Part shown: one piece after another, positions 2,425-3,384 of the stretch | Layout of the letters: each line of letters begins with the position of its first letter | How positions within the stretch are numbered: position 1 is the first letter of the stretch | Virus record (IMG/VR): IMGVR_UViG_2778261223_000002 | Direction: 5' to 3' (one strand) | Length of the DNA stretch: 19,638 nucleotides | Source of the DNA: a virus | Taxonomy: Duplodnaviria; Heunggongvirae; Uroviricota; Caudoviricetes | The notes under the pieces: generated by a model | Told to the model about the DNA's origin: nothing | The model's input: the letters and a program-made list of their open reading frames with translations, nothing else | Databases searched by the model: none | Made by a program: the position numbers and the translations under genes

Positions 2425-2501
2425 CCGCCACCAGTTCACCAAGAAAGAGTGTTAACCCTTTAAGTTGAGTGTGCGAGGTTCGAGTCCTCGGTGGCGGTCC
2501 A
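2425..2501 (+). tRNA. Non-canonical tRNA-like gene X, Lys(UUU)-like anticodon loop with C33
   Basis: 77 nt: acceptor CCGCCAC/GTGGCGG (perfect 7 bp, C1:G72), D stem GTTC/GAGT (two G-U pairs) with D loop ACCAAGAAA lacking G18G19, anticodon stem TTAAC/GTTGA with loop CCTTTAA, T arm CGAGG-TTCGAGT-CCTCG, discriminator T, encoded CCA. Paralogous to element Y at 3303-3384. Confidence 0.5.
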
Positions 2502-2503
2502 GT

Positions 2504-2580
2504 GCCGACTTAGCTCAGTAGGTAGAGCAACTGACTTGTAATCAGTAGGTCACCAGTTCGATTCCGGTAGTCGGGCACCA
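2504..2580 (+). tRNA. tRNA-Thr (anticodon TGT), thrU-like, with one extra G in the 3' acceptor strand
   Basis: D arm GCTC-AGTAGGTA-GAGC, anticodon stem ACTGA/TCAGT with loop CTTGTAA (TGT), T arm ACCAG-TTCGATT-CCGGT; 3' strand AGTCGGGC-ACCA has 8 nt where 7 are expected, giving a bulge or 1:72 mismatch. Confidence 0.75.
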
Positions 2581-2583
2581 TAT

Positions 2584-2658
2584 GCGGGCATCGTATAATG
2601 GCTATTACCTCAGCCTTCCAAGCTGATGATGCGGGTTCGATTCCCGCTGCCCGCTCCA
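2584..2658 (+). tRNA. tRNA-Gly (anticodon TCC), glyT-like
   Basis: 75 nt: acceptor GCGGGCA/TGCCCGC, anticodon stem TCAGC/GCTGA with loop CTTCCAA (TCC), T arm GCGGG-TTCGATT-CCCGC, discriminator T plus CCA; matches the recollected E. coli glyT sequence. Confidence 0.9.
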
Positions 2659-3018
2659 GAAAAACAAATGAGGTATAGGTTTTTCAGCACTGGCGTTTTT
2701 TTCGCGGGGAAAGGTCTCGTATATCCTTTATCGCTCTCCCGAATTATAACGGAGACCAGTTATGATTTCGGTGCTGTGTTTTTTGACGCTATCGGAATAG
2801 TGCATTATTGGTGGGATTTTTGATATTTCCTGGCAGGGGCTGATTATGCACTATCCCGATGTTGTTAACATCACAAAATGAGGTGAACTCCATGTGCGGG
2901 GTGGTTTAAGTAGTTTAGCCGGGAAACTACAGTATCTGATGGAATGTCAGGTATTTCGGGAGGCACCCGACACCTCACTTGTATTATAATAATACTCTTC
3001 AGCACTTACTGATTTGAC

Positions 3019-3045
3019 CACCGCCTTAGCAGGCGGTTTTTTTTT
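3019..3045 (+). terminator. Intrinsic terminator
   Basis: Hairpin CCGCCT-TAGC-AGGCGG followed by 9 T. Confidence 0.6.
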
Positions 3046-3217
3046 GGTAATTTGCAGAATTGCATGCTGAATAAGCACTGCATCGTTAAAATTATAACTA
3101 ATTCCGAATATGCTGTGCTTGCTTATTGTTGGTTTGCTTACATTTTTGTATCTTGCTGCACCGCAGGATTCCCCTGTAACGACGATTGTATGATGAATCA
3201 TTTAAACTTTGTAATTT

Positions 3218-3249
3218 GCCAGCCAGTCTCTGGTGGCTGGCTTTTTTTT
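3218..3249 (+). terminator. Intrinsic terminator
   Basis: Hairpin GCCAGCC ... GGCTGGC followed by 8 T. Confidence 0.6.
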
Positions 3250-3302
3250 GCAAGGTGTTCCAGTAATTCTGTCGTCAGGCTGGATTCCCACATAACACAA
3301 AA

Positions 3303-3384
3303 CCGTCACTAACTCATCGGGTAAGAGTGCATAACACGTATTGTTGTTTTGTGGTGCGGGGTTCGAGTCCCCGGTGACGGTCCA
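3303..3384 (+). tRNA. Non-canonical tRNA-like gene Y, Tyr(GUA)-like anticodon loop with C33 and U37
   Basis: 82 nt: acceptor CCGTCAC/GTGACGG (perfect 7 bp), U8 A9, D arm ACTC-ATCGGGTAA-GAGT, best anticodon stem ATAAC/GTTGT with loop ACGTATT, 9-nt variable region, T arm CGGGG-TTCGAGT-CCCCG, discriminator T, CCA. Stem differences relative to X are compensatory. Confidence 0.45.

Follow-up and report, generated by a model that had tools for sequence, protein, structure and literature searches.

Two diverged copies of an argN-type prophage tRNA gene in the late region of a porcine enterotoxigenic Escherichia coli prophage

Introduction

What are two tRNA-like genes with irregular anticodon arms doing in the late region of a lambdoid prophage? 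The question is raised by IMG/VR record IMGVR_UViG_2778261223_000002, a lambdoid prophage of porcine enterotoxigenic Escherichia coli, whose analysed stretch of 19,638 nucleotides (nt) we call the window. A first-pass annotation of this DNA had read two of its elements, here X and Y, as paralogous tRNA genes with Lys(UUU)- and Tyr(GUA)-like anticodon loops, kept by selection on RNA structure and acting as counter-defence tRNAs or nuclease decoys.

2425–2501, plus strand: X, a mutated prophage tRNA-Lys(UUU) allele with C33 on the argN-family scaffold (BLAST, alignment, family covariance model)
3303–3384, plus strand: Y, an 82-nt family member with a remodelled anticodon/variable region of 28 nt, not 23 (alignment, folding, covariance model)

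We find that one known lambdoid-prophage tRNA gene family, the argN family of Stx phages, accounts for both X and Y, which are diverged copies of it. We think it probable, if by no means assured, that both are decaying or non-decoding members of that family. X would be a Lys(UUU)-version allele that inherited C33 and an A51.C63 mismatch and later acquired seven transitions, which removed U8 and G18 and weakened the D and anticodon stems. Y would be an offshoot of the CCGUCAC sub-family in which insertions and deletions, including a 5-nt GTTGT-like duplication, remodelled the anticodon/variable region. The two would contribute little, if anything, to decoding. Read in this ordinary way, the locus reflects prophage tRNA turnover, in which the anticodon of one scaffold changes among Arg UCG, Arg UCU and Lys UUU, with decay following in several lineages.

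Membership of the argN family

X and Y are built alike. Their acceptor stems, CCGCCAC/GTGGCGG in X and CCGTCAC/GTGACGG in Y, open with C1:G72; both D stems have GAGT as 3' strand; the T arms read CGAGG-TTCGAGT-CCTCG and CGGGG-TTCGAGT-CCCCG, respectively; and both genes end in a discriminator U and an encoded CCA. All of these features, listed in the first-pass annotation, are present in the DNA. The family scaffold is CCGYCAY-UA-GCUC...GCGGGG-UUCGAGU-CCYCG-RUGRCGG-U-CCA, and pattern scans of IMG/VR, GTDB genomes and metagenomes, together with BLAST against E. coli, recovered ~50 distinct members. This scaffold is common to all of them, the anticodon arm being the main point of difference. The argN class, Arg(UCG), is the most common, alongside Arg(UCU), Lys(UUU) and several aberrant classes. 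Lys(UUU) occurs either with a normal loop, CUUUUAU (Lys-U33), or with the loop CCUUUAA (Lys-C33); the latter is the most frequent single family sequence in IMG/VR and carries the A51.C63 mismatch. The usual slot of the family lies directly after tRNA-Ile(CAU), downstream of the gene for antiterminator Q, and 1083 of 5426 complete E. coli genomes (~20%) contain a member.

Across 19 distinct 77-nt members the cloverleaf is paired in 98.5% of cells, with double compensatory changes at 4:69, 7:66, 27:43, 30:40 and 51:63. The differences between X and Y at 4:69 and 51:63, earlier taken as a sign of selection, are indeed double and pair-preserving; they are, however, inherited family polymorphisms and do not speak for selection on the recent changes of X. 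In a covariance model of 19 members (X included, Y excluded), Y scores 71.3 bits (E 2e-19), compared with 35–42 bits for three unrelated tRNAs nearby; X, as part of the training set, scores 91.4 bits, and argN genes score 99–105 bits. A scan of the window with this model found no further family copy. Body identity to canonical members is 90% for both genes (for Y, to Lys-U33 and Arg-UCU), and BLAST places X at 88–92% identity to annotated tRNA-Lys genes and 75–83% to argN tRNA-Arg. The proposed paralogy is thus upheld, Y being recognised by a model built without it and X by its matches to annotated tRNA-Lys and tRNA-Arg genes.

Generic tools recognise neither gene. Rfam tRNA scores fall from 53–56 bits for the Arg and Lys-U33 members to 44.4 bits for Lys-C33 and to no match for X, which is called by none of ARAGORN, Rfam RF00005 (even at E<=10; threshold 29 bits) and the Prokaryotic Genome Annotation Pipeline (PGAP) in identical genomes. 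Y likewise has no Rfam tRNA match even at E<=10, is unannotated by PGAP in identical genomes, and is force-fitted by ARAGORN into an odd fold as Val(AAC). The check with ARAGORN and the Rfam tRNA model that the first-pass annotation had proposed went against X and, apart from the forced ARAGORN fold, against Y. The failure of generic models is also what could be said for a mere chance resemblance to tRNA. We give that explanation practically no credence: it is excluded by the E value of Y in the family model, by the BLAST ties of X to hundreds of annotated tRNA genes and by covariation in the family.

The closest named relatives are the argN genes, which stand with ileZ and argO in Shiga-toxin-converting lambdoid phages such as 933W, 2851, Min27 and Stx2a phages. 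X and Y share with them the scaffold, C1:G72, U73 and CCA, and X also the slot after tRNA-Ile(CAU). As a canonical tRNA-Arg(UCG), argN has U8, G18G19 and U33 and scores ~55 bits in Rfam. In X, by contrast, the anticodon is UUU, position 33 is C, and U8 and G18 are missing; Y differs in its aberrant arm, in its place 800 nt downstream and in a terminator of its own. The argN/ileZ/argO family has reportedly been known since the Stx-phage genomes, and the labels argN, ileZ and argO occur in the database records that we retrieved. A limited literature search, in which absence is no proof, found no publication on the C33 Lys lineage, on anticodon switching on the argN scaffold or on the set of members with aberrant arms, and nothing specific on prophage tRNA decoys or on ileZ/argN/argO. 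X adds a new, degraded allele to an annotated tRNA-Lys gene, and Y belongs to an aberrant-arm set that annotators label OTHER or Pseudo or skip.

X as a tRNA-Lys allele in decay

A cloverleaf drawing accommodates all 21 pairs of X, three of them G.U, and in this register X presents UUU preceded by C33. The first-pass reading of its anticodon loop agrees with near-identical homologues that PGAP and ARAGORN call tRNA-Lys: the prophage tRNA-Lys(UUU) alleles annotated by PGAP in hundreds of E. coli genomes, and those of PPompW prophages, have the same loop CCUUUAA, C33 included. From the common Lys-C33 allele X departs by seven transitions (U8C, C11U, U16C, G18A, C25U, C28U and C63U), and it is no longer recognised as a tRNA. 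Among the near-universal tRNA nucleotides it deviates at C8, A18 and C33. X had been described as lacking G18G19; G18 is lost, G19 is present, and the loss of U8 had been overlooked. It is, as a pseudogene would be, a homologue of functional tRNA genes from which conserved elements have gone.

The pace of change in X is unusual for the region. In comparison with a sister prophage of 97% identity across the region, X differs at 7 of 77 positions, the tRNA-Ile, tRNA-Thr and tRNA-Gly genes at one each and Y at none, with a background of ~1.9% and ~2–4% in non-coding DNA. Calculated from these counts, the Poisson probability of at least seven differences in X is ~0.001, and its substitution rate is ~5 times that of its neighbours. 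The cloverleaf of X has an energy of −17.3 kcal/mol, and that of Lys-C33 −25.5 kcal/mol. When seven transitions are placed at random on Lys-C33, the mean energy is −17.8 kcal/mol, and 42–58% of random sets are at least as damaging as those of X. Cloverleaf stability has thus been lost as fast as unselected mutation predicts. The minimum free energy (MFE) structure of X is another fold, at −28.4 kcal/mol; selection for this fold was considered and rejected, since the value lies only in the 3–8% tail of random mutants. With 7/77 differences, U8 and G18 lost and an energy equal to that of randomly mutated copies, the earlier claim that X reflects selection rather than decay finds no support.

Damage of this kind recurs around X. 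Intermediate alleles in other prophages carry U8C and C11U, with or without C4U. Independent damage is also seen in two other Lys-C33 sublineages, neither of them annotated: one is of C4U/U8C/C11U type, and in the other, the O111/O145 type, the D stem has lost 1 nt and G3.U70 is present. Damaged Lys-C33 sublineages together make up about half of the sampled rows of the clade, and annotation pipelines silently lose about half of the Lys-type copies. In the window itself, the tRNA-Thr(UGU) next to X equals host thrU, including the host anticodon arm, apart from one G too many in the acceptor 3' strand, near 2573 (GTCGGGCACCA). This G is absent from the sister prophage, L001, and the Rfam score drops from 73.8 bits in the intact copy to 62.7 bits. 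The tRNA-Gly(UCC) that follows is 100% identical to glyT. Both are copies of host genes and thus not escape variants; in the host operon, thrU-tyrU-glyT-thrT, tyrU separates the two source genes. We take as the simplest reading that a known prophage tRNA-Lys gene is decaying in X, an allele that most likely functions poorly or not at all.

Some features of X sit less well with simple decay. All four of its stem changes retain a G.U or A:U pair, and C63U mends the inherited A51.C63 mismatch to A:U. Moreover, five of its six body changes fall within positions 8–26, with the acceptor and T arms perfect (p 0.015). Defectiveness of the whole prophage was considered as an explanation of tRNA decay and set aside, as the terminase, portal, protease-capsid and tape-measure open reading frames found by Pfam appear intact.

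The O111/O145 allele was observed at 901–976 of L188 (E. coli O111 RM9322) and, identically, in O145/O111 Shiga toxin-producing E. coli and PPompW prophages. It is a Lys-C33 gene with a 1-nt D-stem deletion and C70U, the latter creating G3.U70, the classical identity pair of alanyl-tRNA synthetase; PGAP leaves it unannotated, and phage records call it tRNA-Lys.

Comparison with targets of tRNA-directed nucleases

Could X instead be a working tRNA that resists cleavage? The PARIS effector AriB cuts host tRNA-Lys(UUU) and tRNA-Thr(UGU) at U36AAUC/A41 (the slash marks the cut), and U39A alone abolishes cleavage (PMC12409363). P2 Old requires paired CNG motifs within the anticodon stem, and phage 21's tRNA-Thr(UGU) rescues (PMC12445682); PrrC cleaves 3' of U33 (PMC2610378). 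Phage-borne copies of nuclease targets are exemplified by phage T5's tRNA-Lys(UUU), which evades AriB, and by the tRNA-Thr(UGU) of phage 21 and T-even type, which resists P2 Old (PMC11464382, PMC12409363, PMC12445682). In this reading, X would be a nuclease-resistant tRNA-Lys(UUU) that during lytic growth replaces host tRNA-Lys cut by AriB, Old, PrrC or RloC, its C33 and altered stem being escape mutations.

At the level of the family, sequence comparison lends this idea some substance. Where the host has the AriB site, the family Lys arm reads U36-A-A-G39-U40-U41; it lacks both of the CNG motifs that Old requires; and C33 replaces the U33 behind which PrrC cleaves. Like the T5 and phage 21 tRNAs, the arm would therefore depart from the host at the AriB and Old sites. 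Lys(UUU) adjoins Thr(UGU), the other prime target of PARIS and Old, and an intermediate allele, L108, is still called tRNA-Lys by ARAGORN. In its cloverleaf register X presents UUU, as do homologues called tRNA-Lys; for Y, GUA appears only in a low-probability fold.

X itself fits the idea poorly, and we judge it unlikely that X works as such a tRNA. It lacks U8 and G18 and fails every tRNA detector; its cloverleaf is 8 kcal/mol weaker than that of the parent allele, and 11 kcal/mol separate it from a more stable alternative fold. Of the sampled Lys-C33 clade copies, about half are damaged, and so is the adjacent Thr copy, which like the Gly copy is no escape variant. X also carries U73, which is not the discriminator preferred by lysyl-tRNA synthetase. 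Compared with the T5 and phage 21 tRNAs, X is damaged, the Thr(UGU) of the window has the host arm, and the scaffold is unrelated to T5 tRNA-Lys. Neither gene appears to offer a chargeable body: X is destabilised, and Y combines its aberrant arm and U73 with the lack of a class-II variable arm.

It is the intact Lys(UUU) of the family, rather than X or Y, that might plausibly stand in for host tRNA-Lys after cleavage by PARIS or P2 Old. A C33 tRNA-Lys(UUU) beside tRNA-Thr(UGU), the two main PARIS targets, in ~15–20% of E. coli genomes would make a candidate counter-defence module of temperate phages. The counter-defence or decoy role first suggested for this locus is thus a reasonable idea for the family, but it is not borne out for X and Y, given the damage to X and the host origin of the Thr and Gly genes.

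Y and its remodelled anticodon region

In Y the body is flawless, with acceptor stem, U8, a 4-bp D stem, G18G19, T arm and UCCA all in place, and the irregularity lies between the D and T stems, where the region is five nucleotides too long. This excess resembles a GTTGT-type 5-nt duplication (GTTGT-TTTGT-GGTG) and occurs in altered form in L150. A GUA anticodon emerges when the stem AUAAC/GUUGU is drawn with the loop ACGUAUU, a fold that requires a 2-nt connector and a 9-nt variable loop; in this register Y has C33 and U37, with U8, G18G19 and the T loop present. The first-pass annotation regarded this as the best fold of Y. The stem, however, has a pair probability of only ~0.01 in the ensemble, the MFE structure pairs GCAU/GUGC and CACG/UGUG instead, and ARAGORN returns Val(AAC). 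Nor does a Tyr identity survive: the loop varies among copies (ACGUAUU, ACAUAUU and GCGUAUU, so that GUA becomes AUA in sister copies), the loops of relatives are unrelated, the discriminator is U73, and there is no long variable arm. Judged by these features, Y is not a tRNA-Tyr and would be unable to act as a normal decoder. Covariation in the proposed anticodon stem was examined and set aside as uninformative, as the 3' strand GUUGU consists entirely of G and U and any transition in the 5' strand keeps pairing.

A weak, sub-threshold match of the tRNA-like domain of transfer-messenger RNA (tmRNA; RF00023) covers Y (15.7 bits, gathering 47), because Y has acceptor and T arms without a normal anticodon arm. 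We rejected Y as a tmRNA given this score, its length of 82 nt, the lack of a tag reading frame and of pseudoknots, and the absence of an ARAGORN tmRNA call.

Y is rare, occurring in 17 of the 5426 complete E. coli genomes. BLAST against phage GenBank records gave no match, and homologues were found only in E. coli genomes, IMG/VR, one metagenome contig and GTDB genomes. Some copies have breaks in the T stem (G50A, or CCCCG to CCATG). The body changes of Y's own, G10A with C25U, A20U, 20a and A26G, all lie in the D arm; A20U we take to be the loss of A20, an identity element of arginyl-tRNA synthetase.

Y sits in a 600-nt non-coding block (window 3151–3754) that also holds two terminators and a hairpin at 3524–3542 and is 99% identical between mosaic prophages, while its flanks diverge, the TerB gene being only 88% identical and the upstream cargo 60–88%. 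Such a block is a module of recent exchange or else a regulatory region that has been conserved. In the M8 prophage of a mouse E. coli (L190, 2501–3514), with iraM upstream, the tRNA array is unrecognisable, its Thr and Gly remnants (83% identity) going undetected, and a 100% identical Y is the sole tRNA-like element. This identity is uninformative on Y itself because it spans the whole 600-nt block. Purifying selection specific to Y was weighed from 10 haplotypes and the M8 prophage and was not decisive, Y lying within a block that is conserved as a whole.

Several features of Y and its kin weigh against decay as the full account. The D stem contains a Y-specific compensatory change, from G10:C25 to A10:U25. 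All five body changes fall in positions 8–26, with the acceptor and T arms perfect (p 0.003). Nucleotide diversity (pi) across the 10 haplotypes is 0.026 in Y and 0.03–0.07 in the flanks, a difference that counts slightly, not decisively. Members with intact bodies and aberrant arms, moreover, recur in Escherichia, Salmonella, Citrobacter, Edwardsiella and Yersinia phages; this would not be expected of ordinary pseudogenes and points, if faintly, to a role that depends on structure.

Relatives with aberrant arms

The relatives in question, with their anticodon arms and the labels they have received, are as follows.

Phage P27 and many E. coli prophages: 11-nt loop ACGAUAACAGG; unannotated in P27, 'tRNA-OTHER' in PGAP
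L150: arm ACCAGAU; Leu CAG in ARAGORN
Yersinia phage YeP1 (L185 1201–1278): CG / AUAAC / CAUUGCC / GUUGU; 'tRNA-Pseudo-TTG'
Edwardsiella hoshinae (L181 1226–1302): AUAAC / UUUGAG / GUUGU; tRNA-??? in ARAGORN
Salmonella diarizonae (L174 2762–2835) and Citrobacter amalonaticus (L183 2–75): 6-nt loops CGGGAU and CAGGAU; tRNA-??? in ARAGORN

The P27 element, the tRNA-Pseudo-TTG of YeP1 and the tRNA-OTHER of E. coli OkiPb01716 resemble Y in having its scaffold, an intact body and a non-canonical anticodon arm, and YeP1 and Edwardsiella share with Y the AUAAC/GUUGU stem and the 2-nt connector. Their loops, by contrast, are unrelated in sequence and length (6, 7 and 11 nt). The members from Salmonella, Citrobacter, Edwardsiella and YeP1 have intact bodies with 6-nt loops, or 7-nt loops without U33; 7 of 74 positions distinguish the Salmonella copy from that of Citrobacter, and no pair is broken. 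Only Y and L150 carry the extra 5 nt after the stem, and most aberrant members occupy the argN slot. In the stx2e phage P27 (L186 1201–1281, AJ249351), ileZ and argO are annotated and the 81-nt aberrant member between them is not; it has a G.G mismatch in the T stem (CCTGG).

These relatives bear on the possibility that Y, like other members with aberrant arms, mimics tRNA without decoding. Such mimics would attach by their intact body to tRNA-directed defence nucleases or other tRNA-binding proteins and act as uncleavable decoys or competitive inhibitors, the hypervariable arm recording an arms race. An intact body with a hypervariable arm is found in at least five genera; in Y the body changes are confined to the D arm and include the compensatory pair; and Y has retained a terminator of its own and moves as a module, also in one prophage with a decayed tRNA array. 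AriB and Old act on the anticodon stem, AriB reportedly contacts the D-loop too, and the authors of PMC12409363 raise inhibition by overexpressed viral tRNAs as a possibility. On the other side, the rescuing tRNA-Thr of PMC12445682 left the endogenous tRNA unprotected, so that competitive inhibition was not seen there. Y is rare, stem-breaking mutations reach appreciable frequency in some Y and OTHER copies, the conservation of Y is explained by that of its 600-nt block, and conservation of the all-G/U arm stem is uninformative. We regard a decoy role for Y as very unlikely. A search of the window for antisense targets of the X and Y arms returned only chance 9-mers.

A more speculative extension, to which we attach an equally low probability, is that lambdoid and related temperate phages of the Enterobacterales carry a class of late-expressed tRNA mimics with a constant, RNase-P-processable body and CCA and a hypervariable non-decoding arm. 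These would be decoys or inhibitors of defence nucleases whose cut falls in the anticodon arm (PARIS AriB, P2 Old, PrrC/RloC and retron PtuAB), with the C33 Lys(UUU) lineage, X included, as an escape form that was moving towards such mimicry. The class would take in Y, the P27 'OTHER' type, L150, YeP1 and the Salmonella, Citrobacter and Edwardsiella types. If aberrant-arm members were functional mimics, they would amount to a new anti-defence strategy, an RNA decoy instead of a replacement tRNA.

The contrast between drifting and intact parts admits one further explanation, in which decoding is irrelevant. X and Y would be kept only as structural punctuation, the acceptor-T minihelix serving as an RNase P signal by which adjacent tRNAs, sRNAs and the late mRNA are parted, or the conserved 3' half would be a patch of homology for mosaic recombination among prophages. 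X starts 1 nt after tRNA-Ile and ends 2 nt before tRNA-Thr, and cleavage at its 5' end would free the 3' end of tRNA-Ile. Precisely the RNase P determinants (acceptor, T arm and CCA) are intact in both genes while the D and anticodon regions drift, and Y lies at the boundary between variable cargo (60–88% identity) and the conserved block (99%). Yet intact arms may equally reflect a short divergence time or gene conversion from functional paralogues, and prophages lacking either Y or the array still run the same late operon. We consider this explanation quite unlikely, and continue to prefer decaying or non-decoding members of the argN family.

Genetic context and expression

Window positions 2300 to 3500 match strains ETEC1749 and rl0044 at 100% identity and UMNK88 at 99.9%. 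The features that surround X and Y are listed below.

408–1082, plus strand: antiterminator Q gene, start of the late region (Pfam Phage_antiter_Q 302.8 bits; PGAP in a 100%-identical genome)
1087–1115, plus strand: pR'-like promoter TTGCAA-17-TATATT, directly after Q, in a unit of 1087–1189 (consensus scan)
1166–1189, plus strand: tR'-like, terminator-like hairpin following the pR'-like promoter after Q
2311–2338, plus strand: promoter-like site TTGATT-16-TATTAT, 10 nt upstream of the tRNA array (9/12 consensus matches only)
2348–2423, plus strand: tRNA-Ile(CAU) of ileZ type, first gene of the array (ARAGORN; Rfam tRNA 72.6 bits; PGAP tRNA-Ile)
2504–2580, plus strand: tRNA-Thr(UGU), the thrU copy with one extra G in the 3' acceptor strand (ARAGORN; Rfam 62.7 bits)
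2584–2658, plus strand: tRNA-Gly(UCC), identical to host glyT (ARAGORN; Rfam)
3218–3241, plus strand: terminator-like hairpin just upstream of Y, closing the preceding small RNA (sRNA)-like unit (hairpin scan)
3411–3430, plus strand: Rho-independent terminator that accompanies Y in all copies (hairpin scan; Y homologues)

According to PGAP on an identical genome and Pfam, the upstream order is RusA, Q, a frameshifted TrmB-like remnant, a gene with an AraC-type helix-turn-helix (HTH) and the tRNA array. The array is followed by ~650 nt of non-coding DNA with terminator hairpins, then by Y, TerB and DUF3927; beyond these come holins and endolysin and then lambda-type terminase, portal and head genes. 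With Q at 408–1082 and the lysis genes downstream, the cargo position between Q and lysis that the first-pass annotation assigned to X and Y is confirmed. Within it, Y lies outside the array slot, 800 nt further downstream and behind two sRNA-like units.

Judging from its position and motifs, the unit at 1087–1189 is likely the start of a late transcript that reads through to X and Y. X would be transcribed both from the array promoter and from this Q-dependent transcript. Y would depend on Q-dependent read-through only, because a consensus scan found no promoter of its own. Both would then be excised by RNase P and 3' trimming, as the intact acceptor-T minihelix suggests.

Other cargo accompanies the two genes. 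The AraC-family HTH regulator gene (window 1608–2321) lies between Q/pR' and the tRNA array and is absent from the sister prophage; the frameshifted TrmB-like remnant upstream of it is known from the PGAP annotation of the identical genome. Weak Rfam matches to YrlA, STnc100 and GcvB in the region are unrelated to X or Y. The two sRNA-like units span 2854–3049 and 3083–3250 and have strong terminators at 3020–3037 and 3218–3241. The first is preceded by a promoter-like site at 2820–2847 and gives a sub-threshold match to STnc100 (27.6 bits, gathering 47). Related prophages hold in the same place one to three strong STnc100 copies (<=142.7 bits), along with the anti-GcvB sRNA AgvB (L004, L005).

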